NCBI GenBank assembly: GCA_902556905.1
Contig: CACDYK010000004.1
Coordinates: 20,066 to 84,065, forward strand
DNA: 64,000 nucleotides
Source of the DNA: an uncultured Pelagibacteraceae bacterium
GTDB taxonomy: Bacteria; Pseudomonadota; Alphaproteobacteria; Pelagibacterales; Pelagibacteraceae
Direction of reading: 5' to 3'
Shown: one piece after another, positions 7,594 to 27,845 of the stretch
How the letters are laid out: every line of letters starts with the position of its first letter
How positions within the stretch are numbered: the stretch's first letter is position 1
Notes under the pieces: generated by a model
Databases searched by the model: none
Told to the model about the DNA's origin: nothing
The model's input: only the letters and a program-made list of their open reading frames with translations
Position numbers and translations under genes: made by a program

Positions 7594-7604
7594 GTTGTAA
7601 AATT

Positions 7605-11873: not shown

Positions 11874-12804
11874 TCTCTGACAATCTTTCAAAAACTTTTT
11901 CTGCTGACAACTTGGATAATTCTGGAGCCTGTATTGCTTTAAAATTTTCTCTTTCGATGCTAACTTTAAAAGGAGTTGTATGAGAACCAAATAAAGCAAT
12001 TCCTTTTGATCCTAAATGAGCTGTCATATGAGCAGGTCCAGTATCATTAGCAACTACAAACGAACTATCTTTAATTAATGCTGCTAACTGAGAAATATCT
12101 AAAGCTTTACCATTATCTAAAACACAAAGAGCATTAATACTTGATGCTTCTTTAATTTCACCAGGACCAGGGGCTATAACTACTTTAAATTTATTGTCTG
12201 ATTTTTCATTAATCATAGAAATTAAATCATTGTAATAAGGCCACTTCTTAGAGGTTAAATGAGGGGAACAAAAAGGAAAAAGAACAATATATTGGTCTAA
12301 TTGATGATAATTTTTTATTTGAGATATATCTGATGGGCTCCATGAAAAATCAGGGCTTAAAGTATGACTGGTATTAATACCAGAACTTTTTAATTGATGA
12401 TCAAATCTAGATAAAACTGAGTCTTTATCAAAATCATCTTTTGTAGTTCCTTTGGGTAATGTGGTTTCTGTAGATGACCATATTTCTTTTGTTGCTTTAG
12501 GAAATAATATATTTTTATAAAATGTTGTTCTGCTTGAGTTTTGTAAATCATAAACTTTAGAAAATTTGTATTTCTTAATATTTTTCATCAATGAATATAA
12601 GTAGATGAGGTTTAATCTTGATAACCGCTTATCTAAAATAACATTTGAAATATGAGGATTTTTTTTAAATAAATCAAAATATGGTTTTGTTGTTAGTAAA
12701 TGAACTTCGTCATTACTATGATTTTCAGAAATATCTTGAATTGCACCACATGCTTGCGCTATATCACCCAATGAACCGTGTTTAATAACTAAAATATTAG
12801 ACAT
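11863..12804 (-). CDS. GT9 glycosyltransferase (ADP-heptose:LPS heptosyltransferase family)
   Basis: ILVIKHGSLGDI, DLQ, KKWP, VANDTGPAHM..H, ALFG. Confidence 0.9.
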   Translation of the reverse strand: MSNILVIKHGSLGDIAQACGAIQDISENHSNDEVHLLTTKPYFDLFKKNPHISNVILDKRLSRLNLIYLYSLMKNIKKYKFSKVYDLQNSSRTTFYKNILFPKATKEIWSSTETTLPKGTTKDDFDKDSVLSRFDHQLKSSGINTSHTLSPDFSWSPSDISQIKNYHQLDQYIVLFPFCSPHLTSKKWPYYNDLISMINEKSDNKFKVVIAPGPGEIKEASSINALCVLDNGKALDISQLAALIKDSSFVVANDTGPAHMTAHLGSKGIALFGSHTTPFKVSIERENFKAIQAPELSKLSAEKVFERLSEIIS

Positions 12805-12836
12805 TTTTATAACAATTTAACATAGTATAAAACTTT

Positions 12837-13226
12837 ATGAACAAAATTCTAGTTGAAGTATCTGTTGGTGAACTTTTTGATAAAATATCTATTTTAGAAA
12901 TCAAAAAAGATAGGATTAAAGATTCTGAAAAACTTAAATTTATAAATGATGAATATGAAGTTTTAAAAAGTGAACTTGAAAAAAATGTTAAACTAGATGA
13001 AAAATTAGAAAAATTTTTTGTAGCATTAAAAAATATAAATTCTAAATTATGGATTATTGAAGACGATAAAAGAAAGTGTGAAAAAGACTCAAACTTTGGA
13101 GAAAATTTTATAAGATTATCTCGAGATGTACATTTTCTTAATGATACTCGAGCTAAAATTAAGCTCGACATAAATAATCATTCAGGATCAAAAATTAAAG
13201 AAATAAAAGAGTATACTAACTACTAA
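12837..13226 (+). CDS. conserved hypothetical protein (DUF6165-like)
   Basis: VSVGELFDKISILEIK, LWIIED..R, F..L.R.V...ND.RA..K..IN...GS.I.E.K.Y. Confidence 0.75.
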   Translation: MNKILVEVSVGELFDKISILEIKKDRIKDSEKLKFINDEYEVLKSELEKNVKLDEKLEKFFVALKNINSKLWIIEDDKRKCEKDSNFGENFIRLSRDVHFLNDTRAKIKLDINNHSGSKIKEIKEYTNY

Positions 13227-14004
13227 AAACTCTGGGAAACCAATCTTCACGCATTAAATCACCAGACTTTAAATTTATTCCATCAAATGGTGGAGAGGTT
13301 GGCCCTCCTCTATTAATGTACTTAACATCATCACCTATAAATCTCATTGAAAATGCCCTTCGAGATTTAGAGGTATTATTTCCAGTTGAGCCATGTACAG
13401 TTTTAAAATTAAACAATACTGCATCACCTAAAGTTAACTCAGGTATTAAAATATTTTTTTTAAATTCTTCTAACGAAGGTAAATTCATAAATGAAGTATC
13501 ATCTTTATACCAAGACTGATCATTAGACCATTTTGTTGGTCTAATTAACTTTAGCCACTTATGAGAGCCTAAAATTAATTGAAGATTATTTTTATTATCA
13601 ACCTCATCTAGTGGTATCCACAAACTCCCTGTATCATTGCCATCAACACAGTAATAAGGCATATCTTGATGCCAAGGTGTTTCTTTATTAGTGCCTGGCT
13701 CCTTAATAAAAATGTGTTCATGAAAAATTTGAGTAGATTTAGAATTAGTTGCCTCAGCAACAATCTGGCCACCAGGTGAATTAAAAATACAATCTTTAAA
13801 TTCTTCTATTCTTTCCCAATTACAATAATCTTCAAAAAATCTACCATTATTATCATTTACGTTTTCTCTTCCGTGTTTACTTGGATTATCTAAAACTTTT
13901 TCAAACCCTTTTCTTAATGGTTCAATCCAGTCTTTAAAAATATCTTTAATAATCAGGGCACCATCAGTTTGATAATCTTTAATTTGTTTCTCTGATAAGA
14001 ACAT
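13216..14004 (-). CDS. PhyH-family Fe(II)/2-oxoglutarate dioxygenase
   Basis: TPWHQD, WIPLD, GSHKW, VHGS..N...RRAFS facial-triad motifs. Confidence 0.9.
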   Translation of the reverse strand: MFLSEKQIKDYQTDGALIIKDIFKDWIEPLRKGFEKVLDNPSKHGRENVNDNNGRFFEDYCNWERIEEFKDCIFNSPGGQIVAEATNSKSTQIFHEHIFIKEPGTNKETPWHQDMPYYCVDGNDTGSLWIPLDEVDNKNNLQLILGSHKWLKLIRPTKWSNDQSWYKDDTSFMNLPSLEEFKKNILIPELTLGDAVLFNFKTVHGSTGNNTSKSRRAFSMRFIGDDVKYINRGGPTSPPFDGINLKSGDLMREDWFPRVFSS

Positions 14005-14009
14005 TTTTA

Positions 14010-14684
14010 TTATTGAAAACTATATTTTTTCTCTAGGTATTTAATAACGTTGTGGATGATAAAAGTCATAAATAAATAAATTCCACCTGCAACAATGAAT
14101 ACTTCTATTGGTTTGAATGTTGTTGAAATAATATACTTTGCAACACCCGTTAGGTCCATTAATGTAACAGTACTTGCTAAAGAAGTTCCCTTCATCATCA
14201 ATATTATCTCATTCCCATATGCGGGCAATGATTGTCTAATGGCAATTGGAATTTGTATTTTATAAAATATTATTTTGTTTGATATTCCTAAGCTTTTACC
14301 AGCCTCAATAATACCTGGTTTTATTGTTTGAAATGCAGATCTTAAAATTTCAGAGGTATAAGCACCAGTATTTAATGTAAAAGCTATGATTGCACACCAG
14401 TAAGGTTCTTTAAGAATAACCCACAAAAATGTTGATCTTAAATATTCAATTTGTCCTAAACCAAAATAAATGATGAAAATCTGAACCAATAAAGGTGTTC
14501 CTCTAAAAACATAAGAATAACCGTAAGCAAATTTGTTAATAAATATATTTTTGTTTAATCTTAAAATTGCAAACAATAATCCAATAAATAAACCAAAGAA
14601 TAAAGAAACAGATAAAAGTTTTAAAGTAACGACAGTGGCTCCTAATAATTTAGGGAAACTAGTGAACATTAAATCAAAATCCAT
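14010..14684 (-). CDS. polar amino-acid ABC permease (HisM/OccM-like)
   Basis: FRGTPLLVQ, AYTSEILR, EAGKSLG. Confidence 0.9.
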   Translation of the reverse strand: MDFDLMFTSFPKLLGATVVTLKLLSVSLFFGLFIGLLFAILRLNKNIFINKFAYGYSYVFRGTPLLVQIFIIYFGLGQIEYLRSTFLWVILKEPYWCAIIAFTLNTGAYTSEILRSAFQTIKPGIIEAGKSLGISNKIIFYKIQIPIAIRQSLPAYGNEIILMMKGTSLASTVTLMDLTGVAKYIISTTFKPIEVFIVAGGIYLFMTFIIHNVIKYLEKKYSFQ

Positions 14685-15376
14685 TAATACCCCCTGCTAT
14701 ATTTTGCTTCTAATCTATTGATTAGTTTCATGCTTAAAAAAGTTAACAATAAATATAAAACAGCGGCAAATGAGTAAAAGAATAATGGATCTCTAGTAGA
14801 GCCTGCTGCAATATAAGATTGTCTCATAATTTCAACCAAACCTGTGACTGAAATAAGAGATGTATCTTTTAAAGTAATTTGCCAAACATTACTAAGATTA
14901 GGAATGGCTAGTCTTAACATTTGAGGTAAAATTATTTTATAAAACTGTGCAAATTTACCTACACCCAAAACTTTAGCAGCTTCAAACTGGCCTTTATCGA
15001 TTGATTGTATTGCTCCACGAAACACTTCGGTTGAATATGCACCTGAAATTATTCCAATTGCCATAGAGCCAGTTATGAAAGCGTTAATCTCTATATATTC
15101 AAAATATCCAAAGATAGATGCAACATACATGATTGCACCACTTCCGCCAAAAAAGAAGAGATAAATTACTAAAAGTTCAGGGACACCTCTAATAACTGTT
15201 GTGTAAAAATTTCCAATTAAATTCAGAGATTTAAATTTTGATAATTTTAAAGGAGTAAATATAAGTGCAAAAAAAAATCCAATAAACATTGCTGTAACCG
15301 ATACAGCAATGGTCATCAGAGTTGCATAAAATAATTCATCGCCCCAACCAGTTTTACCAAATGCGAGAAGTTCCAT
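14684..15376 (-). CDS. polar amino-acid ABC permease (HisQ/OccQ-like)
   Basis: IRGVPELL, AYSTEVFRGA, GQFEAA. Confidence 0.9.
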   Translation of the reverse strand: MELLAFGKTGWGDELFYATLMTIAVSVTAMFIGFFFALIFTPLKLSKFKSLNLIGNFYTTVIRGVPELLVIYLFFFGGSGAIMYVASIFGYFEYIEINAFITGSMAIGIISGAYSTEVFRGAIQSIDKGQFEAAKVLGVGKFAQFYKIILPQMLRLAIPNLSNVWQITLKDTSLISVTGLVEIMRQSYIAAGSTRDPLFFYSFAAVLYLLLTFLSMKLINRLEAKYSRGY

Positions 15377-15382
15377 ATAGAC

Positions 15383-15407
15383 TGGCGACTATATATTATA
15401 GTCGCCA
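15383..15407. terminator. intergenic hairpin downstream of the SBP gene
   Basis: Perfect 11-bp inverted repeat tggcgactata-tat-tatagtcgcca. Confidence 0.6.
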
Positions 15408-15420
15408 AATCTGAAATTAA

Positions 15421-16272
15421 TTACATAGAAGCGTCGAAACCAAAGTGTTTAATAGCAAGTTTGCTAATAATTCCTTTTTTTCTAGCTTTATCAATTGCTT
15501 TGTTGAAGTCTTTTAGAAGTTTTGCGTCTCTTTTTCCGATCGCATCATCTCCACCCTGTCTAATACCAACACCAACACCATTACCAAATGCACCACCTGA
15601 AAAAGTTGGTCCAACTAATGTAACTGGTTTACCTGATTTATCAGCATAGTCCGTAAATGCAACTGCTGCAGCTAAGGCAACATCACATCTTCCAGATGTT
15701 AGGTCTAAGTTAACTTCATCTTGAGTTTTGTAAGTTCTTACATTTACACTTCCAACATCACCAGACTCTAAAAAGTTTTGGTGAATTGTTCCTGTTTGAG
15801 TACAAACAGTTTTTCCAGCTAGTGCGCCTGTTAAAGTTTTAAGAGCTTTTTTAACGTCAGATCCACCTAATGTTAAATTAACACCTTCTGGAGTATCCAT
15901 GCCTTCTAAGCTTGAACCTTTCATTACTGCAAGTGATGCTACTTCGTCAGCATAACCTTGTGAAAAAGTAATAGTTTTTTGTCTTTCAGCTGTAATCGAC
16001 ATTCCAGCCATAATCGCATCAAACTTTCTCATTAACAAAGCTGGAATCATTCCATCCCAATCTTGTTCAACGATAGTACACTCATGTTTCATGATTGCAC
16101 AAAGTTCTTGAGCTAGCTCAACTTCAAAACCTATAAGATTGCCTGAAGCATCTTTAGAGTTCCATGGTGGATAAGCACCTTCAGTTCCAATTTTTATTTT
16201 GTCAGCGTAAACATTTCCGATAACTAATAAAGAAGCAAGAACTGTTAAAATAGATTTTTTAAATATATTCAT
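15421..16272 (-). CDS. polar amino-acid (Arg/Lys/Orn/opine type) ABC substrate-binding protein
   Basis: Signal peptide, GTEGAYPPWN, QDWDGMIPAL...KFDAIMAGMSIT.ER. Confidence 0.9.
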   Translation of the reverse strand: MNIFKKSILTVLASLLVIGNVYADKIKIGTEGAYPPWNSKDASGNLIGFEVELAQELCAIMKHECTIVEQDWDGMIPALLMRKFDAIMAGMSITAERQKTITFSQGYADEVASLAVMKGSSLEGMDTPEGVNLTLGGSDVKKALKTLTGALAGKTVCTQTGTIHQNFLESGDVGSVNVRTYKTQDEVNLDLTSGRCDVALAAAVAFTDYADKSGKPVTLVGPTFSGGAFGNGVGVGIRQGGDDAIGKRDAKLLKDFNKAIDKARKKGIISKLAIKHFGFDASM

Positions 16273-16331
16273 TATTTTCTCCTTTAATTTGGAGCAATTA
16301 TTTCACAGATTTAATAATTTAAAAAGAAAAA

Positions 16332-17372
16332 TTAATGATTTATTGATGACGAAAAATTCCAAGAGCAATCAAAACTTGGGATATAAACTCTAGATAACTT
16401 AGTATTTCCAAAATGATGATTGAATACGTTTAGCCAACTATCAACTTGTTTTGGTTTTTTGTCTTGGCTACCAACTTGAGCGGTAATCACACCTTTTGGT
16501 TTTAAAATCCTAATCATAGAGTCCATATTTTTAGCAGCAAGGTTTATACAAAATTGATCGTCATTAAGATCAACAAAAATATGATCATATGTATCATCTT
16601 CAACTGATTTAATACTTTCAAAAGCATCTCCCCAAACACATTTTACAGAGTTTTTTTCAGTAGCCTTTTTACCTATATCTCCAAGATGTTTATTACAAAC
16701 ATCAACAACTTCTGGGTCTAACTCAAACCAATCTACAAAATTAAAATCTTTAGAAATGCATTCTCTTGCAACACCACCATCTCCACCACCGATAATTGCA
16801 GCTCTTTCATTATTTTTATTCAAATTTAATCCAGCACCAACGAATGTAGAGCTATATAAATGCTCATCCGTTGCAGCAACTTGTATTTCTCCATCAATAA
16901 ATAATGATTTACCAAACTGTTCTAATTCTAAAATTTCAATATGTTGACCAACTTTTGATTTAAAATCTTCAAGAACATCGTTTACAACGTATGATTTCTG
17001 TAATCCTGGTGAACTATAAATATCGTGATATAAAGATTTAGTATCTCTATTAAACTCTTTTTTTACTATTCTTTTATGACCAAACTCTTTCTTAATAATA
17101 TCTATTGCAACTGACGGACTTATTTTTCCACAAGTAAAAAAATCAAAACTAATAATTCCTTTTTCCGGGAATGTATGAAAACTAATATGACTTTCTGCTA
17201 ATAATGCCAATATTGTAAATCCTTGAGGTTCAAATTTATATTTTGAAATATTAAGAATTGTTACTTTTGCTGCTTTTGCAATATCATTAATTACTTTTTC
17301 ATACACAGAAGGATCATATTCTTTTGTTGTGCCAATGATGTCTAGAGTTATATGTTCTCCAACCTTAGTCAT
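16332..17372 (-). CDS. fused S-adenosylmethionine decarboxylase / aminopropyltransferase (SpeD-SpeE)
   Basis: N-terminal LAESHISFHTFPE..DFFTCG pyruvoyl site; C-terminal LFIDGEIQ, IIGGGDGG, ELDPEV. Confidence 0.9.
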   Translation of the reverse strand: MTKVGEHITLDIIGTTKEYDPSVYEKVINDIAKAAKVTILNISKYKFEPQGFTILALLAESHISFHTFPEKGIISFDFFTCGKISPSVAIDIIKKEFGHKRIVKKEFNRDTKSLYHDIYSSPGLQKSYVVNDVLEDFKSKVGQHIEILELEQFGKSLFIDGEIQVAATDEHLYSSTFVGAGLNLNKNNERAAIIGGGDGGVARECISKDFNFVDWFELDPEVVDVCNKHLGDIGKKATEKNSVKCVWGDAFESIKSVEDDTYDHIFVDLNDDQFCINLAAKNMDSMIRILKPKGVITAQVGSQDKKPKQVDSWLNVFNHHFGNTKLSRVYIPSFDCSWNFSSSINH

Positions 17373-18007
17373 TAGTTATCCTTTTTGTAATTCTTTGCCT
17401 TGGATAAAACTTTTTTCATTTCATTTTTAGAAAGAATCTTAGGCTTACCCAATTTTAGGCTGGTTATATACTGAAGCGATATATTTTCAACCTCTTCAGC
17501 CAACTCAAAAGCTTTGGGTAAATTTTCCTCAAATGCAATCTGTCCGTGATTTGCAATTAAACAAGCTTTACGACCTTTTAATGCTTTTAAAATATTTTTT
17601 GATAAATCTCTGGTTCCAAAAGTTGCATATTTTGCACATTTGATATCCTGACCTCCTGCCATAGCTACCATATAATGAAATGATGGAATTCCTCTCTTAT
17701 GAGTAGAAACCGCTGTTGCATTTGTAGAATGGGCATGAACAATTGCTTCAGCCTCTTTTTTATTTTTATAAATATCTTGGTGAAATTGCCATTCTGAAGA
17801 TGGAATACCTTTTTTATTATCAAACTTTCCTTCTAATGAAACAAAAACGATATCTTTAGTTTTTAAAGAAGAATATTTTTTTCCAGATGGAGTAATTAAA
17901 AAACCCTCTTTATATCTGATAGATATATTTCCAGACCTAAGTGCAGATAACTTTCTGCTATTAAGCATTTTTGAATATTTGATTATTTCAGCCTTAATTT
18001 TCCTCAT
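17372..18007 (-). CDS. class II aldolase (FucA-like; probably methylthioribulose-1-P / 5-deoxyribulose-1-P aldolase)
   Basis: SGNIS, PSSEWQFH, VHAHS, NHG Zn ligands; mtnA and mtnP nearby. Confidence 0.85.
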   Translation of the reverse strand: MRKIKAEIIKYSKMLNSRKLSALRSGNISIRYKEGFLITPSGKKYSSLKTKDIVFVSLEGKFDNKKGIPSSEWQFHQDIYKNKKEAEAIVHAHSTNATAVSTHKRGIPSFHYMVAMAGGQDIKCAKYATFGTRDLSKNILKALKGRKACLIANHGQIAFEENLPKAFELAEEVENISLQYITSLKLGKPKILSKNEMKKVLSKAKNYKKDN

Positions 18008-18060
18008 TAAAAAGAACTTGATTTTAACTTAATTTAAGATCAGACTACATAAAGATTAAA

Positions 18061-19422
18061 ATGGCTGATACAATAAAATATTTTCTGGAAGAAGGCAAAA
18101 TGCCAAAAACTTGGTATAATATTGCTGCAGATTTACCAAAACCTATGGAGCCTCCTCTTCATCCAGGAACATTAAAACCAATTGGACCAGATGATCTAGC
18201 TCCTTTGTTTCCAATGGCTTTAATTGGCCAAGAGGTTTCTCAAGATAGAGAAATAGAAATACCTGGGCCTGTAAGAGAAATTTATAGACAGTGGAGACCT
18301 TCTCCACTTTATAGAGCTAGAAAATTAGAAAAACATTTGGATACTCCAGCAAAAATTTACTACAAATACGAAGGTGTTAGTCCTTCTGGTAGTCACAAAC
18401 CAAACACTGCAGTTGCTCAAGCTTTTTACAATAAAGAAGAAGGCACAAAAAAAATAACTACAGAAACAGGAGCAGGTCAGTGGGGAACTTCCCTAGCATT
18501 CGCATGTAAATTATTTGGAATTGAGTTGGATGTTTATATGGTTAAAGTGAGTTTTGAACAAAAACCATATAGAAAACTTGTTATGCAAACTTATGGAGCA
18601 AGATGTGTTGCAAGTCCATCAAACGAGACGGATAGTGGTAAAGCAATTTTAGCAAAAGACCCAAACAATACTGGAAGTTTAGGAATAGCAATTTCTGAGG
18701 CTGTAGAAATGGCTGCTAAAAATCCTGATACAAAATATGCATTAGGAAGTGTTTTAAATCATGTTTTAATGCATCAAACTATCGTAGGTAATGAAGCAAT
18801 ATTACAAATGGAAATGGCAGATGATTATCCTGATATTTTAGTTGGTTGCACAGGAGGTGGAAGTAATTTTTCAGGATTAGTAAATCCATTTTTAGGAAAA
18901 AATTTTAGAGAAGGAACTAATACAAGAGTGATAGCATGTGAACCAAAATCATGTCCTACATTAACAGAAGGTAAATTTGTTTATGATTTTGGCGATACCG
19001 GTAAATTAACACCTTTAGTAAAAATGCATACTTTAGGATCTCAATTTATTCCTCCAGCAACACACTCTGGTGGATTAAGATATCATGGCATGGCTCCTCT
19101 TGTCAGTCACTTAAAAGAAATTAATGCAATTGAAGCAAAAGCATATGGTCAAAAAGAATGTTTTGAAGCAGGAGTAAATTTTGCAAGAACAGAAGGTATA
19201 GTTCCTGCGCCTGAAGCGACACATGCTGTTAAGGGTGCTATTGATGCTGCTTTAGAGTGTAAAAAGAATGGAGAATCTAAAACTATATTATTCAATTTAT
19301 GTGGTCATGGTCATTTTGACATGAAAGCATATGGAGATTACTTCGAAGGAAGCTTAGCGGAAGATAAGTTTGATAAAGGAAGTATGGACAAAGCTTTAGA
19401 AGATCTTCCAAAAATTGCTTAA
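18061..19422 (+). CDS. trpB2: TrpB2-type tryptophan synthase beta (stand-alone)
   Basis: 453 aa, WYNI.ADLP N-terminus, SGSHKPNTA PLP lysine, TETGAGQWG, GGGSNF, LCGHGHFD; no trpA adjacent. Confidence 0.93.
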   Translation: MADTIKYFLEEGKMPKTWYNIAADLPKPMEPPLHPGTLKPIGPDDLAPLFPMALIGQEVSQDREIEIPGPVREIYRQWRPSPLYRARKLEKHLDTPAKIYYKYEGVSPSGSHKPNTAVAQAFYNKEEGTKKITTETGAGQWGTSLAFACKLFGIELDVYMVKVSFEQKPYRKLVMQTYGARCVASPSNETDSGKAILAKDPNNTGSLGIAISEAVEMAAKNPDTKYALGSVLNHVLMHQTIVGNEAILQMEMADDYPDILVGCTGGGSNFSGLVNPFLGKNFREGTNTRVIACEPKSCPTLTEGKFVYDFGDTGKLTPLVKMHTLGSQFIPPATHSGGLRYHGMAPLVSHLKEINAIEAKAYGQKECFEAGVNFARTEGIVPAPEATHAVKGAIDAALECKKNGESKTILFNLCGHGHFDMKAYGDYFEGSLAEDKFDKGSMDKALEDLPKIA

Positions 19423-19431
19423 TTTTCGAAA

Positions 19432-20535
19432 TTGAGTCTAATTAAACCATTTAGCGGAATAAGACCAAAAAAAAAATTTGCAAAACAAGTTACCTCTCCA
19501 AACTTAAGTTATATTGATAATTACAAACAAACCAAAAAATTAAATTTTCTTAGTATATTAAATACTCCAAACATAAATAAATCAAAAAAAATGCTTCAAA
19601 ATCTTAGTGATAAGGGCATTATTCAACAAGACCGATCAAATCATTTCTATTTATATCGAATTACATACAACAAGAAAAAATTACTTGGGATAATTGGAAA
19701 AATAAATTTAGAAAATTATGATGACAAAAAAATATTAGGTCATGAAGAAACCTTTGTAGAAAGGATTAAAAAAAGAAAAGAGCAATTATTAAAATTTAAT
19801 AGTCAAATTAGCCCTATATATACTGCATATAAGTCTAGCCCAAATTCTTTCAAGAAATTAAATAATATTTTTAAATATAAGCCAGATTATAATTTTAAAT
19901 CTGAGGATAAGTGCAGGCATGAACTGTGGGTTGTCAAAAAAGTAAATATAGAAAAATTACTTAAAAACTATCTTAAAAATATTAAAAAAATATACATATG
20001 TGATGGACACCATCGGATCCAGGCCATGTTAAAAAGTAAAAAAAAAATTGCTCCTATGATAATTGCTTTTCCTGATAACCAGGTAAATATACTCGATTAC
20101 AATAGAGTTATAAAAACTAGCTTGAAATTTGAGAAAATTAAAAAAATAATTTCAAAAAACTTCTCTTTAAATGTCTCTAAAAAGAATAATAAACTTAAAC
20201 AAAACCAAATTGAAATGTACGTAAATAAAAAATGGCATACACTTCAGCTATTCAAGCAATCAAAAGAATTGGATGTAACTATATTGAGGAAATTGATATT
20301 AAATAAAATATTAAAAAACAAAAAAAATATTAAATTTGTATCGGGTTTTAAAGGTAAAAAAGTCTTAGAAAATTTTGTAAACTCTAAAAAATACGATTTA
20401 GCATTTAAGTTATATCCTACTAATATTTTGGAAGTTTTGGCTTATGCTGATAAGAAAAAATATATGCCACAAAAATCCACATGGTTTCATCCAAAACCAC
20501 TTGATGGTTTGATTTCTTCTAGAATTATTTCTTAA
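19432..20535 (+). CDS. DUF1015 family protein (putative ParB/Srx-fold kinase)
   Basis: IKPFSGIRP, GHEET, YICDGHHR, YNRV, MPQKSTWFHPKPLDGL. Confidence 0.85.
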   Translation: MSLIKPFSGIRPKKKFAKQVTSPNLSYIDNYKQTKKLNFLSILNTPNINKSKKMLQNLSDKGIIQQDRSNHFYLYRITYNKKKLLGIIGKINLENYDDKKILGHEETFVERIKKRKEQLLKFNSQISPIYTAYKSSPNSFKKLNNIFKYKPDYNFKSEDKCRHELWVVKKVNIEKLLKNYLKNIKKIYICDGHHRIQAMLKSKKKIAPMIIAFPDNQVNILDYNRVIKTSLKFEKIKKIISKNFSLNVSKKNNKLKQNQIEMYVNKKWHTLQLFKQSKELDVTILRKLILNKILKNKKNIKFVSGFKGKKVLENFVNSKKYDLAFKLYPTNILEVLAYADKKKYMPQKSTWFHPKPLDGLISSRIIS

Positions 20536-21598
20536 ATAATTCTTTTAAACCCTTAGATGATGCTTCAGAAATACCTCTTTCGGTAATTAATCCTGTTACA
20601 TATTTTGCAGGTGTTACATCAAACGCTAAATTCATAGCCTTACTTTTTTGTGGGTATATCAAAACTTTCTTAACTTGATTATTTTCATCAATCCCCTCCA
20701 CATGAGATAATTCCTCAGAATTTCTTTCCTCAATAGGAATGTCTTTTGCATCTTTAATATTCCAATCAATTGTTGAGCTAGGTAGTGCTACATAAAAAGG
20801 AACATTGTTATCATAAGCTGCTAATGCTTTAAGATATGTTCCAATTTTGTTACACACATCTCCATTAGATAATGTTCTATCAGTTCCAACAACACACATA
20901 TCAACTTCACCTCTTTGCATTAAAATACCACCAGTATTGTCAGCAATAATAGTATTTGGAATTTCTTCTTCGTTTAACTCATATGAAGTTAAATTTGCTC
21001 CTTGATTTCTTGGCCTTGTTTCATCAACCCAGACATGAACTGGAATTCCTTTTTTATGAGCATGATAAATTGGTGAAGTTGCTGTTCCCCAATTAATAGT
21101 TGCTAACCAACCTGCATTACAATGAGTTAAAATATTTACTGTACTTTTTTTCTTGTTATAAATTTCTTCGATAAGTTTTAATCCATTAATACCTATATTT
21201 TTACAAAAATTTTCATCTTCATCACATATTTCTTTAGCTTCTTTTAAAGCTATATCTAAAATTTGATTATTATTAATTCCTGTTAATTTTTTTATCATAC
21301 GATCTACTGCCCATTTTAAATTGATAGCTGTGGGTCTAGATTGGATTAATTCGTTTGAACTTTTTTTAATAAATTCAAGATCATTACTCTCTTGAATAGC
21401 CAAAACAATTCCATAAGCTGCAGTTGCTCCAATTAGTGGGGCACCTCTCACTTCCATTACCTTTATTGCATTAATTGCGTCTTTTACTGTCTTTAATTCT
21501 TTAATAACAAAATTGTGTGGTAGCTTAGTTTGATTAATTATCTTAACAACACTTTCCTCATACCATATTGTTCGATATTCTTTTCCTTCTATTCTCAT
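20525..21598 (-). CDS. mtnA: methylthioribose-1-phosphate isomerase
   Basis: VRGAPLIG, SRPTAINL, LTHCNAGWLAT, DETRPRNQGA, NKIGTY, FDVTPA. Confidence 0.95.
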   Translation of the reverse strand: MRIEGKEYRTIWYEESVVKIINQTKLPHNFVIKELKTVKDAINAIKVMEVRGAPLIGATAAYGIVLAIQESNDLEFIKKSSNELIQSRPTAINLKWAVDRMIKKLTGINNNQILDIALKEAKEICDEDENFCKNIGINGLKLIEEIYNKKKSTVNILTHCNAGWLATINWGTATSPIYHAHKKGIPVHVWVDETRPRNQGANLTSYELNEEEIPNTIIADNTGGILMQRGEVDMCVVGTDRTLSNGDVCNKIGTYLKALAAYDNNVPFYVALPSSTIDWNIKDAKDIPIEERNSEELSHVEGIDENNQVKKVLIYPQKSKAMNLAFDVTPAKYVTGLITERGISEASSKGLKELFKK

Positions 21599-21599
21599 A

Positions 21600-22514
21600 T
21601 TAATAAATTTGTTCTAAAAAATTAATAATATCATTTGTATTTGATTGTTTCTCAGCAAAGCATTTGGTTAAAGGTATTCCGTGATGTTTACCAAAAATCA
21701 ATTTTGCTTTACAATCAGATTTACTAATATCTTTATACATAACAGTATTTAAATTTAAAAACGAGAGAGTTTTAGAAGTTTCCCAACCATCTTTATCGTG
21801 TACATAAATTATCGTGTTGTTCAAACTTTTCAAATCTATTTGACTGACACCATAAGTTCTCACAAGTTCCCAGAATTTCCATTCTCTTCTATTATTTAAT
21901 TTTCCAGAAAATGCTGGATTAATTGCAATAGTACCTGAGATTTTATTTGGAAATTTAGATTTTAAAGTAATTGATGCCCAACCTCCTGCAGAATGTCCTG
22001 CTAAAATAATATTTTCAAAACCAAGATTAATTAGTTCATCTACTTTATTTATAACAACTTTTTGTTTTCGAAATTGTTTTGCACCATTAAATTTTATTCT
22101 ATCAAAGTCATTTTTAATTATTTTTGAAAAATTATCTTTTGATGAATTTTTATAAATATCATCCATCTTTCTCCAATGATTTTCAGTCCAGCCTCTTACA
22201 CCTGAACAAAGATGATAAATTTTAACTTTAAGATCCTTTATCTTTTTATCATGTAAATTAAGTATTATTGGAGGAACTTTATTCCATTTTTTGTTGCATT
22301 TATCCAGAGTTTGCTCACCTTGACTTCCATGAGTATATACAATTAAAATTATATTTTTTTTATCTGATAAATTTTCAATTGGATAAATCTTTCCTGTATT
22401 GTTAATAAAACCATTATCTTTTGAGACTTTTTTTAAATCCTTTTCAAATTTTTTATCAGCAAATGAATTTGTACTTAGTAAAACAAATAGGGTTATAATT
22501 AATATTTGTCTCAT
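21600..22514 (-). CDS. secreted alpha/beta hydrolase
   Basis: Signal peptide, HGS, GHSAGG nucleophile elbow, distal Asp and His. Confidence 0.7.
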   Translation of the reverse strand: MRQILIITLFVLLSTNSFADKKFEKDLKKVSKDNGFINNTGKIYPIENLSDKKNIILIVYTHGSQGEQTLDKCNKKWNKVPPIILNLHDKKIKDLKVKIYHLCSGVRGWTENHWRKMDDIYKNSSKDNFSKIIKNDFDRIKFNGAKQFRKQKVVINKVDELINLGFENIILAGHSAGGWASITLKSKFPNKISGTIAINPAFSGKLNNRREWKFWELVRTYGVSQIDLKSLNNTIIYVHDKDGWETSKTLSFLNLNTVMYKDISKSDCKAKLIFGKHHGIPLTKCFAEKQSNTNDIINFLEQIY

Positions 22515-23383
22515 TTATTAAGAACTCTACCAGCTACTGTTTTAAGTTTATCTATTGTTTTTTGAGTTCTTTTTTCTGGAGCAGTTATTATTGCTACATT
22601 TAAACAATTGTTAGTTGGGTCATTTGGATCAATATGTTCTTCAAAATTATCTATTATATTTTTGATCATAACCTTAGCCTTTTCGGCGTTACCTAAAAGA
22701 ACTTTAATTACTTGTTGCACATCTACATTTTCATGATCAGGATGCCAACAATCAAAATCAGTCACCATTGATACTGACGCATATCTAATTTCGGCTTCTC
22801 TAGCGAGTTTTGCTTCAGGCATGTTGGTCATTCCAATTACATCTGCTTTCCATGATCGATATAAATTAGACTCTGCAAGTGTAGAAAATTGTGGACCTTC
22901 CATTACAACGTATGTTCCATTTCTCTGGTAATCTATATTTGATTTTTTAATTGCTTCCTCACAAGCATTCATCAATCCATTTGACGTTGGATGAGCCATT
23001 GAAACATGAGCTACAATTTCTTCATCAAAAAAAGTTTTTGTTCTTGCAAAAGTTCTATCAATAAATTGATCTACAATTACAAATTTTCCAGGAGACAAAT
23101 CTTCTTTGAGTGATCCTACTGCTGATACAGAAACGATATCTGTTACTCCTAATTGTTTAAGTGCATCAATATTTGCTCTAAAATTTATATTAGACGGTGA
23201 AACAAAATGACCTCTTCCATGTCTTGGTAAAAAATAAACCTCTTTAGCATTAAAACTAGTTTTTAAAATTTGATCAGATGGTTTCCCCCATGGAGTATTT
23301 AAATCAAGTAATTCTCTATCTTTAAAATCTTCAACATCATAAAGACCACTTCCACCAATTATTGCTAATTTATTAGTTGTCAT
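22511..23383 (-). CDS. mtnP: 5'-methylthioadenosine phosphorylase
   Basis: IIGGSGLY, RHGRGH, EGPQFST.AES, GMTNMPEAKLAREAE, TDFDCW. Confidence 0.95.
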   Translation of the reverse strand: MTTNKLAIIGGSGLYDVEDFKDRELLDLNTPWGKPSDQILKTSFNAKEVYFLPRHGRGHFVSPSNINFRANIDALKQLGVTDIVSVSAVGSLKEDLSPGKFVIVDQFIDRTFARTKTFFDEEIVAHVSMAHPTSNGLMNACEEAIKKSNIDYQRNGTYVVMEGPQFSTLAESNLYRSWKADVIGMTNMPEAKLAREAEIRYASVSMVTDFDCWHPDHENVDVQQVIKVLLGNAEKAKVMIKNIIDNFEEHIDPNDPTNNCLNVAIITAPEKRTQKTIDKLKTVAGRVLNK

Positions 23384-23424
23384 AGTTAAAAATTTAATTA
23401 TTTATACTTTTATATTTAAGTATT

Positions 23425-23952
23425 ATGAATTTAAAAGATTATATTAGATCTATCCCTGATTATCCTAAAAAGGGTATTTTATTTAGAGATATAACCACAT
23501 TAATAAAGAATGAAAATGCTTTTGCGGAAACTATTAATCAAATAGTTGAAAGATCAAAAAAATACAACTTTACTAAAATTGCAGCAATTGAATCTCGTGG
23601 TTTTGTTTTTGCATCAGCTGTTTCTTACATCTTAAAAAAACCATTCATAATGCTAAGAAAAAAAAATAAATTACCCGCCGATGTTCACTCCATTGATTTT
23701 GAGCTTGAGTATGGGACAGCCACAATTGAAGTTCATAAAGACTCATTAGATGAAAAAGATGCTGTCTTGATTATTGATGACTTAATTGCAACTGGTGGTA
23801 CTGCTGAAGCAGCTGCAAAACTTGTTGAAATTTCAAAAAGTAAAGTAGCAGCATTTGTATTTGTAATTAACTTATTTGATTTAGGTGGATCCGATAATTT
23901 AATTAAAAATAATTATAAAGTTGAAAATTTAATTGATTTTCCGGGACATTAA
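23425..23952 (+). CDS. apt: adenine phosphoribosyltransferase
   Basis: PDYPKKGILFRDIT, ESRGF, LEYG, IDDLIATGGT. Confidence 0.96.
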   Translation: MNLKDYIRSIPDYPKKGILFRDITTLIKNENAFAETINQIVERSKKYNFTKIAAIESRGFVFASAVSYILKKPFIMLRKKNKLPADVHSIDFELEYGTATIEVHKDSLDEKDAVLIIDDLIATGGTAEAAAKLVEISKSKVAAFVFVINLFDLGGSDNLIKNNYKVENLIDFPGH

Positions 23953-23953
23953 T

Positions 23954-24030
23954 TGGTAGCGGGAAGTGGGATCGAACCACTGACCTCAGGCTTATGAGTC
24001 CTGCGCTCTAACCAACTGAGCTACCCCGCC
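23954..24030 (-). tRNA. tRNA-Met(CAU), probably elongator
   Basis: GGCGGGGTAGCTCAGTTGGTTAGAGCGCAGGACT-CAT-AAGCCTGAGGTCAGTGGTTCGATCCCACTTCCCGCTACCA cloverleaf with encoded CCA; lacks the initiator C1:A72 mismatch and GGG/CCC anticodon stem. Confidence 0.93.
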
Positions 24031-24132
24031 AAATAATTCTCGTTGATTTATAATAGATTTTATTTTGAGTGCAATCAAGTATTTGCCTTATTTTACCTCT
24101 TACAATGTCAGATATTGAAACTTTGAATATTC

Positions 24133-24342
24133 TTAAATTACGAAAAAAAAACCTACTAAACTTATAGTTAATATTAATAAAGATGAAAAAATAATTTTTT
24201 TTTTAAATTCTGTTTTTTTTGAATGTCTCACTCTATTAAGGAGTATATTTACGTCTGTCGTTTTTACTTTATCAGATACAGTGTTTTTGTTTTTGGTTGG
24301 AGATACTTCAAATAAATTTATTTCTCTCTGACCTTTTTTCAT
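24133..24342 (-). CDS. small protein with a C-terminal TM anchor
   Basis: 69 aa; basic stretch then terminal TM helix; resembles 35253..35447. Confidence 0.65.
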   Translation of the reverse strand: MKKGQREINLFEVSPTKNKNTVSDKVKTTDVNILLNRVRHSKKTEFKKKIIFSSLLILTISLVGFFFVI

Positions 24343-24391
24343 AACTATATTTAATCAGCAATTTATAAAAAAAACAAATCAATAATTCTAA

Positions 24392-26836
24392 TTAAGCATT
24401 TTTAAAGTTAGTTTGTTTTAAAGGTTTAATAAGTATTTCTGCTTTATATTTTCTCTTTTCAATCTCAATATAAATATTCCTATCAATTAACTCCTCATTT
24501 GAAAGATCAGAATTTATATAACCATATGATAAATTTTTATTATAATTAAAAGAATAATTTCCAGATGTTGTTTTTCCAATAATTCTTTCATCTAAATAAA
24601 TAGGCTCTTCATGCATTAAAAGAGGATTGCCAGGCATATTATCTTTTAAAACTAGCATGATAAATCTTCTATCCAATTTTTGATCTTTAATTTCTAGTAG
24701 CTTTTTTTTTCCAATAAAATCAAATTTTTTTTTATAACTAATTGCAAAATTTAAGCCTGCTTGATATTGGTTTTCTTCAGGAGAAATGTCATGTCCCCAA
24801 TGTAAAAAACCACTTTCCATTCTCATTGTATCCATGGTGTGGGCACCACAATGAGTAACTTCAAAATCTTTTCCAGTATTAATAATTAAATCATATATTT
24901 TTTTACCATTTTTTTTTTGTATATAAAACTCATAACCAAGCTCACCCACATAAGACAGTCTTTGAACCCAAACATTTATTAAATTTAATTTAATATTTTT
25001 ACCTGTACCAAATTTAAAATTTTTATTAGATAAATCTTCATTGGTAATTTTTGACAATAAGTCCCTGCTTTTAGGTCCAAAAATTCCTAAGCATACCAAT
25101 TCATCTGTAACGTCTTTAAATTCAAGATCTTTCGATAAATGTTTTAGTATATGAGCTTTATCATGTGTTCTAACAGCTGCTGAACTTATTATTCTAAAAT
25201 GATTTTTTTTAATACAAACAACAGTTAGATCTGTTTCAATACCAGCACCTTCGTTAAGCATGTGAGTATAGGTACATTTTCCTATTTCATTCTTTATATT
25301 TGCAGTACATAATCTCTGTAATTCTTCATATGCTTTCTCACCTTTAATTTCATATTTAGAAAAAGGAGAAAGCTCAAACAAACCTACATTTTTAACTGTG
25401 TTTTTACTTTCTCGCTCAACAGAGGGATACCAATTTTGATAATTAAAACTATATTTGTATTCTGGATTAATATCATCTAGCGCATACCACATTGGTCTTT
25501 CATACTCTCCTGATTGACCAAAGCACGCACCTGCTTTTTTTAATTCATTATGATATGGAAGTAGTTTTTGATCCCTTGAAGTTTTGTGTTGCTTATACGG
25601 CCAATGCATTCCATATAGATCACCTAATGTCTCTGTAACTCTGCTCATTATAAATTTTTTAGATGAATGAAATTTTTGAAATCTTTTGATATCTAATGAA
25701 AATAAGTCTTCATTCATATACCCATTAATCATCCATTCTGCTGTAACTCTGCCCGCACCCCCAGAACTTGCAATTCCAATGCTGTTAAAACCACAACACG
25801 TGAACAAGTTTGTTACCTCTGGAGTTTCTCCAAGTAAATATTGGGTATCAGGTGTAAAAGACTCTGGTCCTGAAAAAAATTTTCTAATTCCAGCATTTTC
25901 TAATAATGGGAGTCTTTTAAATGATTTTTCTAAATAAGGTTCGAAATGATCGAAATCATCAGGAAACTCACCAAATGAAAAATTATCAGGAACTATTCCT
26001 TTATCTTTGAAAGCATTTTTTGCACCAGGTTCAAAAATACCAACAAGCATTTTTCCAGCATCTTCTTTTAGATAAAGACAATCATTGTAATCTCTAAGCA
26101 CTGGAAGGTCTTTTGGCAGATCCTTCATAGGTTCAGTTATTATGTAAAAATGCTCATTTGGATAAAGAGGAACACTTACTCCTATATCTTCACCAATTTG
26201 TCTTGACCACATGCCTGTTGCAAGCACTACGTACTCACATTCTATCTTGCCCTCTGATGTTTCTACGCCAATAATCCTTTTATTTTTTACTAATATTTTA
26301 GTTACTGGTTTTTTTTCAAATATTTGTGCACCTTCTATTTTGGCAGCTTTTGCCAACACATTAGTTACGCCTACTGGATCTGCCTGACCATCTTCAGGCA
26401 TATACACTCCTCCCAAGATATCTTTATTATTGATGACGGGGTATAAATCTTGAACCTGTTGTTTGTTTAAAACGTCAACATTTACATCAAAAAGTTGAGC
26501 AGACGTTGCCTGTCTTAACAGTTCTTGAAGTCTTTGTTCTGAGCTAGCAACTGTAATTGCCCCATTTTGTTTAAGTCCAGTTGATAGTTCAGTTTTTTTT
26601 TCTAATTCTTTATATAGATTTAGAGAATACTTTCTAAGTTTGGTAATTGTTGCTGTTGCACCTAGTTGACCAACAAGACCAGCCGCATGCCAAGTGGTTC
26701 CAGATGTTAATTGATCTCTTTCAAGAAGAATTATGTCTTTCCATCCAAATTTTGCTAAATGATAAGCTACTGAACACCCAGCAACACCTCCACCAATTAC
26801 TACAACCTTACATTTTTTGGGAAGATTTTTTATCAT
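24392..26836 (-). CDS. GcvT-family FAD-dependent oxidoreductase (dimethylglycine/sarcosine dehydrogenase-like)
   Basis: VIGGGVAG, SGTTWHAAG, GPESFTPD, C-terminal GcvT folate-binding domain. Confidence 0.9.
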   Translation of the reverse strand: MIKNLPKKCKVVVIGGGVAGCSVAYHLAKFGWKDIILLERDQLTSGTTWHAAGLVGQLGATATITKLRKYSLNLYKELEKKTELSTGLKQNGAITVASSEQRLQELLRQATSAQLFDVNVDVLNKQQVQDLYPVINNKDILGGVYMPEDGQADPVGVTNVLAKAAKIEGAQIFEKKPVTKILVKNKRIIGVETSEGKIECEYVVLATGMWSRQIGEDIGVSVPLYPNEHFYIITEPMKDLPKDLPVLRDYNDCLYLKEDAGKMLVGIFEPGAKNAFKDKGIVPDNFSFGEFPDDFDHFEPYLEKSFKRLPLLENAGIRKFFSGPESFTPDTQYLLGETPEVTNLFTCCGFNSIGIASSGGAGRVTAEWMINGYMNEDLFSLDIKRFQKFHSSKKFIMSRVTETLGDLYGMHWPYKQHKTSRDQKLLPYHNELKKAGACFGQSGEYERPMWYALDDINPEYKYSFNYQNWYPSVERESKNTVKNVGLFELSPFSKYEIKGEKAYEELQRLCTANIKNEIGKCTYTHMLNEGAGIETDLTVVCIKKNHFRIISSAAVRTHDKAHILKHLSKDLEFKDVTDELVCLGIFGPKSRDLLSKITNEDLSNKNFKFGTGKNIKLNLINVWVQRLSYVGELGYEFYIQKKNGKKIYDLIINTGKDFEVTHCGAHTMDTMRMESGFLHWGHDISPEENQYQAGLNFAISYKKKFDFIGKKKLLEIKDQKLDRRFIMLVLKDNMPGNPLLMHEEPIYLDERIIGKTTSGNYSFNYNKNLSYGYINSDLSNEELIDRNIYIEIEKRKYKAEILIKPLKQTNFKNA

Positions 26837-26858
26837 TTATAAATTAAGTATAGATAAA

Positions 26859-27845
26859 ATGTCTAAATCAAGCAAAAATATTTTAGTAACAGGTGGAGCT
26901 GGCTACGTTGGTAGTCATATAGTCGAACAATTAATCAAAAATAAAGAGTCAGTAATTATTCTAGATAATTTAGTTACTGGATATGAAAGATTAATAAATA
27001 AAAAAGCTAAATTTATTAAAGCTGACATCAAAAATAAATCTAATATGACTAAAATTATCAAAGATTATAATATAAATTCAATTATTCATCTTGCTGCATA
27101 TCTAAATATTAGTGAAGCTGAAAAAAATAAAAGAAAATATTACACTAATAATATTACTGGAACCATGAACCTTTTAGAGGCTTGTAAAAATTCTAATGTT
27201 AAGAATATTATTTTTTCATCATCCTGTAGCGTTTATGGAAATGTAAAAGGCTCAGTTAGTGAAAATAGAAAGCCAAATCCACAAGGATATTATGGATATA
27301 CTAAATTTAAAGGTGAAGAATTAATAAAAAAACTATCTCTTAAATATAATTTAAAATATGGAATTTTGAGATATTTTAATGTTGCAGGCGCAAGTAATTC
27401 AGGAAAAATTGGAGAAATCGAAACATCCCATGGTCATTTAATAAAAAATTTAGCAATTAGATCTTTAGAAAAGAAACCTAAAGTTAAAATTTTTGGAAAT
27501 AATTATAAGACTAAAGATGGTACCTGTATAAGAGACTATATTCACATATCTGATTTAGCCGATATACACATTAAAGGGTTAAAATATTTAAATAATAACA
27601 AAAAATCATTCGTCCTAAATTGTGGTTATGGAAAAGGATATTCAGTTCAACAAATTGTAAATATCTTTAAAAAAATAAAAAAAGGTGTTGAGATACAATA
27701 TCAAAAAAGAAGACCTGGAGACATTGCTCAAGTATATGCTAATACTAAAAAATTTAAGAAAATCTTGAGATGGAAACCAAAATATAACGATATAAAATTA
27801 ATTATAAAAAGTGCAATAAGTTGGGAAAAAAAATTAGACTACTGA
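26859..27845 (+). CDS. galE: UDP-glucose 4-epimerase
   Basis: TGGAGYVGSH, YGYTK, LRYFNVAGA, DGTCIRDYIH, RRPGD; start moved to ATG 26859 to avoid overlap with the divergent gene. Confidence 0.9.
   Translation: MSKSSKNILVTGGAGYVGSHIVEQLIKNKESVIILDNLVTGYERLINKKAKFIKADIKNKSNMTKIIKDYNINSIIHLAAYLNISEAEKNKRKYYTNNITGTMNLLEACKNSNVKNIIFSSSCSVYGNVKGSVSENRKPNPQGYYGYTKFKGEELIKKLSLKYNLKYGILRYFNVAGASNSGKIGEIETSHGHLIKNLAIRSLEKKPKVKIFGNNYKTKDGTCIRDYIHISDLADIHIKGLKYLNNNKKSFVLNCGYGKGYSVQQIVNIFKKIKKGVEIQYQKRRPGDIAQVYANTKKFKKILRWKPKYNDIKLIIKSAISWEKKLDY

Follow-up and report, generated by a model that had tools for sequence, protein, structure and literature searches.

A trpB2-DUF1015 gene pair in Pelagibacteraceae: remnant of a phosphoserine operon and candidate source of O-phospho-L-serine for TrpB2

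In a 64,000-nt stretch of contig CACDYK010000004.1 (positions 20,066 to 84,065; assembly GCA_902556905.1) from an uncultured Pelagibacteraceae bacterium, hereafter the window, a gene for a stand-alone TrpB2-type, pyridoxal phosphate (PLP)-dependent tryptophan synthase beta-like enzyme (trpB2, 18061..19422, + strand) is followed by a shortened, SerBK-like DUF1015 gene (19432..20535, + strand) that we propose encodes an L-serine kinase. We found that this pair is a reduced derivative of a trpB2-DUF1015-serC-serA operon, that is, a secondary state of an older operon rather than a module evolved to make up for the loss of serC. As to its function, we put forward with evenly balanced confidence that its DUF1015 makes O-phospho-L-serine (OPS) for TrpB2, giving a nucleotide-driven indole salvage after serC was lost. 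It is also plausible, though we stop a little short of favoring it, that the slimmed, fast-evolved SerBK of these serC-less Pelagibacter has been repurposed as a dedicated serine kinase whose sole role is supplying TrpB2 with activated serine, in an ATP-driven, high-affinity salvage of indole to tryptophan, and that TrpB2 is wired to the phosphoserine pool in marine alphaproteobacteria.

The two genes and their products

The listing of open reading frames (ORFs) bore out the layout described in the initial annotation, a + strand island among - strand genes (13216-18007 and 20525-23383): the first ORF encodes 453 aa from an ATG start and ends in TAA, and after a 9-nt spacer (19423..19431, + strand), which reads as an operon-type junction, the second encodes 367 aa from a TTG start. 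This TTG start is supported by the N-terminus M-x-x-I-x-P-F found family-wide in DUF1015 proteins. A divergent intergenic region of 53 nt (18008..18060, + strand) separates trpB2 from an aldolase gene on the - strand and is the presumed promoter region of the pair. The sigma-70-like match at 18034-18062 was weak (9/12) and of a kind no commoner than in shuffled sequence, promoter and terminator scans at the pair gave nothing beyond the shuffled-sequence level, and an Rfam scan in E-value mode (12000-28000) returned only a tRNA, with no riboswitch or leader by the pair. Seawater RNA libraries of three studies yielded contigs that covered both genes and spanned their junction (X1, 19390-19808; X5, 19237-19473; X6, 18472-19487), which is consistent with, though not proof of, co-transcription as an expressed bicistronic unit. 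RNA-library depth was greater for trpB2 than for DUF1015, a difference we left unused because the conserved trpB2 attracts relatives and contig depths cannot rank genes. A complex prediction for TrpB2 and DUF1015 scored 0.00, a value uninformative as to binding or channelling.

The upstream product is a TrpB2, as first annotated: it scored over the cut-offs of the curated equivalog models NF009057 (724 bits, cut-off 366) and TIGR01415 (622, cut-off 519) and below that of the canonical trpB model TIGR00263 (148 bits, cut-off 392). Its closest solved structures were those of Sulfolobus solfataricus TrpB2 (6HUL_B, 4QYS, and 6HTE; E-values 1e-113 to 1e-130), and it was ~55% identical over the aligned length to the characterized S. 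solfataricus enzyme. The protein has a full-length fold-type-II core (PALP domain 77-415) and keeps the PLP-lysine motif GSHKxNTA, which reads GSHKPNTA here and GSHKINTA in 6HUL_B (alignment residues 10-425). Among all carriers in the SAR11 family TrpB2 was 82-92% identical, and the ratio of nonsynonymous to synonymous substitution rates (dN/dS) of trpB2 against the congeneric genome G101 was 0.055. The earlier remark that no trpA lies nearby held up, as trpA (contig C8) and canonical trpB1 (C16 and C8) are both outside the window; TrpB2 is thus an extra enzyme in the source genome. The canonical trpB1 was split over two contig ends (C16:8-574 and C8:68341-68709), with the assembly break adjoining trpA. 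According to PMC11917138, which cites Busch et al. 2014 and Hettwer & Sterner 2002, TrpB2 enzymes are tryptophan synthases that depend on OPS and bind indole with high affinity. By analogy with these enzymes, the TrpB2 of the window would be expected to prefer OPS over L-serine.

The downstream protein matched PF06245 (E-value 9e-50, 170 bits against a gathering score of 25.8), and an NCBIfam scan assigned it to no named family. It carries the motifs singled out in the initial annotation, GHEET (H104-E105) and YICDGHHR (D191-R195). In a family alignment of 134 DUF1015 representatives at 25-51% identity, all eight invariant columns (E105, D191, G192, H194, R195, K348, T350, and P354) were kept in the window protein, as were 42 of the 45 columns conserved at ≥85%, the differences being A190C, P254K, and P347Q. 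An AlphaFold2 model built from this 134-sequence alignment was of high confidence (predicted local distance difference test score, pLDDT, 95; predicted template modelling score, pTM, 0.92). Foldseek against the PDB returned nine significant matches (E-values 5e-7 to 2e-5), all of them free serine kinases: SbnI (6NR6, 5UJE, and 5UJD) and SerK or its Pyrococcus furiosus homologue (5X0B/E/G/J/K and 1VK1). The tenth match (E-value 0.011) was noise. Structural realignment (VIA) gave Z scores of 12.4-14.9 over 214-226 of ~240 residues with SerK and SbnI, followed by sulfiredoxin at Z 5.6 and a ParB N-domain at Z 3.7. The model shows the two-domain SerK/SbnI fold, with a ParB/Srx-like N-domain and a C-domain, and the structural kinship predicted in the initial annotation thus comprises the only significant PDB matches.

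Since a direct sequence search (phmmer) of the protein against PDB sequences found no match, the link to SerK and SbnI rests on profile and fold searches. A DUF1015 profile search of PDB sequences gave segments that were individually weak (E-values 0.016-0.28) but collinear with SerK. In this alignment 'kkHElT' falls on SerK K27-P-H29-E30, placing H104-E105 on H29-E30; 'YIADGHHR' falls on SerK 66-LIVDGHHR-73, so that DGHHR corresponds to SerK D69-R73; and 'MPpKST' falls on SerK 'SPKTT', with PKST at SerK P220-T223. Mutation of SerK E30 is named in the titles of PDB entries (E30A and E30Q). The correspondence of the HE and DGHHR motifs to SerK, anticipated in the initial annotation, is therefore collinear in the profile alignment and would put them at the kinase's H29-E30 and D69-R73. 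With 12-16% sequence identity to SerK and SbnI, DUF1015 is, as judged from the model, a distant full-length homologue of these kinases outside their sequence family.

A function for the family had already been proposed, and the initial annotation was mistaken in presenting one as new. Price et al. (GapMind 2026; bioRxiv 10.1101/2024.10.14.618325, PLoS Genet PMC13759103) proposed DUF1015 as 'SerBK', a serine kinase-like replacement of SerB; genetic data exist for CBO1128 and BT1151 only. In that work a DUF1015 gene complemented an E. coli serB mutant, BT1151 was required for growth of Bacteroides thetaiotaomicron on serine as nitrogen source, and both the Foldseek tie of DUF1015 to SbnI and its clustering with serA and serC were reported (Price et al., PMC13759103). 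SerBK was proposed to be reversible, with the kinase direction thermodynamically favored (reverse K ~4e-4; Price et al., PMC13759103).

Distribution of the pair and of the serine genes

We sampled 151 Pelagibacteraceae genomes, G000 being the source genome of the window. DUF1015 occurred in nine and TrpB2 in eight; seven genomes had both (G000, G101, G003, G009, G024, G042, and G051), and in 7/7 trpB2 was the gene directly 5' of DUF1015, in the same orientation. The loci fell into four classes. Class A (G003, G009, G024, and G051) has a tight trpB2-DUF1015-serC-serA(short) operon, with serC-serA inverted next to the pair in G051. Class B (G030 and G085) has G051-like flanks (sucCD, ppc) and DUF1015/serA/serC arrangement with no trpB2, serC lying 9 kb away in G085. 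In class C, to which the window belongs (G000, G101, and G042), the pair stands alone in a 5'-methylthioadenosine (MTA)-salvage context in a genome without serC. Class D is trpB2 alone, without DUF1015 or serC, in G048 (93% complete). G051 and G030 have common flanks and differ by a trpB2 insertion or deletion exactly 5' of DUF1015, and the four-gene blocks of G003, G009, and G024 have flanks unrelated to each other. The pair was thus found in at least four flanking contexts, with a spacing of 9-26 nt in ORF coordinates, and such recurrence in differing surroundings makes the adjacency more than a chance event. Two further loci, both from marine alphaproteobacteria, had trpB2 directly 5' of DUF1015: a single-cell genome (L025) that has all four genes of the operon, its TrpB2 being 69% identical, and a Rhodospirillaceae metagenome-assembled genome (L043) with the pair on a short contig. 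A metagenomic sister of the SAR11 DUF1015 proteins had the order DUF1015-serC-like-serA.

Two ideas about the pair were rejected on these comparisons. The initial annotation had proposed surveying co-location of the two genes against serC absence. In four of the seven pair-bearing family genomes serC is part of the cluster, and loss of serC is thus not what gave rise to the adjacency. Likewise we discarded a functional tie to the MTA-salvage genes, a context present only in G000, G101, and G042 and not in the other six pair-bearing genomes.

Within SAR11 the distributions of SerB and DUF1015 were complementary, in independent agreement with the SerBK proposal. Five complete genomes with serC and no DUF1015 (G012, G014, G017, G026, and G037) all had a canonical serB, 2-3 kb from serC, and none of five genomes with both serC and DUF1015 (G003, G009, G024, G051, and G030; 65-86% complete) had a SerB over the cut-off. 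It follows that the main job of DUF1015 in classes A and B is to convert OPS to serine, in SerB's place. The same five serC+ DUF1015+ genomes have the serA/serC neighborhood that is a hallmark of SerBK, which is absent at the window locus; a second hallmark, a genome without conventional SerB, is seen in the source genome (86.6% complete).

The source genome is 1.28 Mb in 42 contigs with ~30% GC, and its close protein relatives carry Pelagibacterales labels. In what was assembled we found no serC_1, serC_2, or serB (TIGR00338) and no tblastn match to SAR11 SerC; its eight 2-hydroxyacid dehydrogenase paralogues are ~35% identical to the SAR11 serA-like gene. None of the 21 genomes sampled from the window's genus, most of them 99% complete and among them G101, a complete one-contig genome bearing the pair, had serC, so that gaps in the assembly do not account for its absence. 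Across the family, however, serC was present in 47/151 genomes, and serine auxotrophy is therefore a genus-level and not a family-level trait; the earlier statement that SAR11 lacks the SerC/SerB route stands for the source genome and its genus and fails for the family.

The DUF1015 of class C has diverged much further than its partner. It was 35-42% identical to the class A and B proteins, which share 76-91% among themselves, and it has lost five segments totalling ~40 residues; the window protein was ~30% identical to typical family members. Nevertheless, the gene is real, under purifying selection, and not decaying: its dN/dS against G101 was 0.11, and more than 100 metagenomic clusters of window-type DUF1015 (70-96% identity) were nearly all of 366-367 aa, the few others being truncated fragments, so that the gene is common in metagenomes from the sea. 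FastTree gave class-C DUF1015 a long branch (0.59) next to the remaining SAR11 DUF1015 proteins, with weak support for the join (11) and a support of 89 for a wider clade of 15 rows. Since the linked trpB2 is 83% identical, vertical descent with acceleration is the parsimonious explanation, though not a proven one.

A proposed route from serine to tryptophan and its rivals

In the mechanism we propose, DUF1015 would be a SerBK-type ParB/Srx-fold enzyme that interconverts L-serine and OPS. In class A, OPS made by SerA and SerC would be split between SerBK, yielding serine, and TrpB2, yielding tryptophan, and it is this tapping of SerA/SerC-derived OPS that would account for trpB2 standing first in a phosphoserine operon. 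In class C, DUF1015 would act as a kinase, converting serine plus ATP or ADP to OPS, and would be the only evident source of OPS because the window's genus is without serC or serB. TrpB2 would join this OPS to indole, yielding tryptophan and phosphate, for a net conversion of serine, NTP, and indole to tryptophan, NDP, and inorganic phosphate alongside the canonical TrpA/TrpB1 synthase. We infer the kinase direction: with no serC, a favored kinase reaction, and a conserved gene, a class-C SerBK makes sense only as a producer of OPS.

Several observations weigh against this proposal. L-serine is also accepted by TrpB2 enzymes. In a cell without serC, a kinase drained only by TrpB2 would tend to trap serine as OPS unless it were regulated. 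The divergence of class-C DUF1015 (~36% identity versus 83% for TrpB2), together with its deletions, could mean that its substrate has changed. The source genome is only 86.6% complete, though G101 is complete. Among the genomes, G048 (93% complete) keeps TrpB2 without DUF1015 or serC and is the sole counter-example to coupling, from which it follows that TrpB2 is not strictly dependent on an OPS supply from DUF1015; there trpB2 (6405-7766, - strand, of locus L016 = G048:C1:41000-55000) is flanked by genes for a MORN-repeat protein and a transaldolase/fructose-6-phosphate aldolase (FSA)-like protein. The link is moreover lineage-specific, since the two genes were never adjacent outside marine alphaproteobacteria. 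Of 400 other Pseudomonadota genomes, 72 had DUF1015, 45 had TrpB2, and 34 had both, with adjacency in 0/34, and of 80 diverse DUF1015 loci 18 had a serA-like neighbor, two (L025 and L043) had trpB2 within 6 kb, and 78 had none. The expectation that adjacency would be conserved in relatives thus held in 7/7 Pelagibacteraceae and in L025 and L043, and did not extend to the rest of the phylum. Price et al. (PMC13759103) themselves stress that the biochemistry and working direction of SerBK are unsettled.

The confinement of the adjacency to marine alphaproteobacteria (0/34 elsewhere in the phylum; 2/80 in the global sample) is what one would expect if the gene order merely reflected shared ancestry in one clade, with no functional coupling. 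We consider this improbable, as the pair survives in at least four contexts, through inversion of serC-serA (G051) and their loss (G000, G101, and G042), with trpB2 always directly 5' and the spacing tight at 9-26 nt. Alternatively, the locus may be a leftover of the serine operon, in which DUF1015 works only from OPS to serine, kept with trpB2 for historical reasons or for an unrecognised OPS source, such as some aminotransferase and dehydrogenase route, and TrpB2 uses L-serine. The complementation of serB (Price et al., PMC13759103) would fit this, as would the position of DUF1015 in relatives, where it sits with serC and serA and substitutes for SerB, the retention of TrpB2 alone in G048, and the eight 2-hydroxyacid dehydrogenase paralogues of the source genome, which could in principle include a phosphoglycerate dehydrogenase (PGDH). 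We nonetheless judge a leftover unlikely, if worth keeping in view: both types of serC are missing from the source genome, from the complete G101, and from all 21 genus genomes, and a phosphatase-direction enzyme without a substrate should decay in a streamlined 1.3-Mb genome, yet this one has a dN/dS of 0.11 and keeps 42/45 conserved positions. It is also the gene beside trpB2 that was retained while serC and serA were lost.

The chemistry itself may have changed, with DUF1015 acting on another hydroxy-amino acid or TrpB2 on a non-indole nucleophile such as a thiol, possibly tied to MTA salvage. The long branch of class-C DUF1015 (0.59), the motif-adjacent changes A190C and P347Q, and the position of the pair between the aldolase and mtnA genes of an MTA cluster in G000, G101, and G042 all point this way; however, every invariant catalytic column of DUF1015 is kept, TrpB2 is 82-92% identical to operon-type SAR11 TrpB2s and ~55% to that of S. 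solfataricus, and the other pair-bearing genomes have no MTA context, so we give this a slim chance. Slimmer still, in our estimation, is the prospect that OPS is imported, as part of dissolved organic phosphorus, and used both by TrpB2 (to tryptophan and phosphate) and by a reversed DUF1015 (to serine and possibly ATP). The host genus is without serine biosynthesis, SerBK was proposed to be reversible (Price et al., PMC13759103), and a polar-amino-acid ATP-binding cassette (ABC) transporter (13216-16272, - strand) encoded ~2 kb from the pair is conserved in G101 and G042. Yet import is purely speculative: no OPS transporter was identified, the transporter neighborhood is missing from the other contexts of the pair, and the reverse reaction is unfavorable at cellular ATP/ADP ratios (Price et al., PMC13759103).

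The proposed supply of OPS by DUF1015 to TrpB2 follows a design that is already known, in that serine kinases feeding OPS-dependent PLP enzymes (SbnI/SbnA, and SerK in cysteine synthesis) have been described, as has the kinase-like assignment of DUF1015. As a free serine kinase, SbnI feeds the OPS-dependent fold-type-II PLP enzyme SbnA in staphyloferrin B synthesis. The logic proposed for the window would be the same as in this Staphylococcus aureus system, a ParB/Srx-fold serine kinase making OPS for a neighboring beta-replacement enzyme of the PALP superfamily, and the DUF1015 model aligned to SbnI with Z 12.4-13.4. Unlike SbnI-SbnA, the acceptor would be indole, giving tryptophan, rather than glutamate, there is no siderophore context, identity is only ~12-16%, and DUF1015 has extra N-terminal and inserted segments. 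SerK was the best structural match (Z 14.7-14.9 over ~225 of 240 residues), with HE, DGHHR, and PK(S/T)T collinear, but it is archaeal, has 242 aa, and belongs to a different sequence family (profile E-values 0.016-0.28). The Thermococcus kodakarensis enzyme (TK0378) is an ADP-dependent free serine kinase that feeds cysteine synthesis (PMC5120207). With the SerBK proteins CDIF630erm_01132, CBO1128, and BT1151 the window protein has in common the PF06245 family, the structural link to SbnI, and a host without SerB, and the SAR11 relatives add to the likeness a serA/serC neighborhood and a distribution complementary to SerB; in contrast, the window gene has no serA/serC neighbor and no serC in its genome, is partnered with trpB2, and is ~40 aa shorter at ~30% identity to typical members. 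The characterized TrpB2 enzymes (S. solfataricus TrpB2a/TrpB2i and Thermotoga maritima TrpB2o) belong to the same equivalog family and likewise stand alone away from trpA. None of these has been reported with a dedicated OPS-supplying gene, whereas trpB2 of marine alphaproteobacteria heads an operon of phosphoserine genes.

In the searchable literature we found nothing on the pairing of TrpB2 with DUF1015, on the four-gene marine alphaproteobacterial operon, or on a serC-less remnant with an accelerated SerBK, and Price et al. (PMC13759103) make no mention of trpB2 or SAR11. The initial annotation's 'undescribed two-gene system' is accordingly right as to the pairing, but the kinase/PLP-enzyme design is known and the pair is an operon remnant. 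The physiological role of TrpB2 and its preference for phosphoserine have been standing questions since 2002 and 2014, and the locus amounts to a natural experiment on them, with no SerA/SerC/SerB route, a conserved SerBK, and TrpB2 as the only adjacent OPS consumer. If DUF1015 does supply TrpB2, the dependence of TrpB2 on OPS would for the first time have an in vivo rationale, and nature would offer a third case of a serine kinase paired with a PLP enzyme that depends on OPS. Indole, which serves as signal and waste in plankton communities, may be scavenged by a minority of Pelagibacter. Some Pelagibacteraceae have a serine pathway in which DUF1015 substitutes for SerB, and not all need be glycine/serine auxotrophs.

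Neighboring genes and other PLP enzymes

The pair interrupts an MTA-salvage/polyamine cluster (16332-23383), lying on the other strand between its aldolase and mtnA genes; the cluster resembles a set of the dihydroxyacetone phosphate (DHAP)-shunt type. Outside the module, and marking the insertion site, lies a class II aldolase gene of fuculose-phosphate-aldolase-like type (17372..18007, - strand; PF00596, NF005984 at 218 bits). From its sequence this enzyme could possibly be the 5-methylthioribulose-1-phosphate (MTRu-1-P) aldolase of the DHAP shunt; mtnB models scored below their cut-offs on it. Also outside the module, mtnA (20525..21598, - strand), encoding S-methyl-5-thioribose-1-phosphate isomerase (TIGR00512, 420 bits, over the cut-off), is convergent with the DUF1015 gene, their 3' ends overlapping by 11 nt. 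The cluster further includes an S-adenosylmethionine (AdoMet) decarboxylase fused to spermidine synthase (16332-17372, - strand) and an MTA phosphorylase gene (22511-23383, - strand). Between mtnA and the latter is a 304-aa ORF (21600-22514, - strand) with no Pfam or NCBIfam match; the complete genome G101, of the same genus, is syntenic here except that it lacks this ORF. Further neighbors encode a phosphoribosyltransferase and a dimethylglycine dehydrogenase (DMGDH)-like oxidase, and a tRNA gene (23957-24030, - strand; RF00005, 63 bits) lies directly downstream of the phosphoribosyltransferase gene.

Two other PLP enzymes in the source genome deserve mention. A cysteine synthase A-like enzyme (PRK10717, 521 bits) is encoded ~75 nt past the 3' end of the window (G000:C4:84139-85140, or L105:640-1641) and on sequence grounds is potentially another beta-replacement enzyme using OPS or O-acetylserine (OAS). 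On contig C2, a gene for a diaminopropionate ammonia-lyase-like PLP enzyme (L004:1042-2169, - strand) adjoins a type III glutamine synthetase-like gene.

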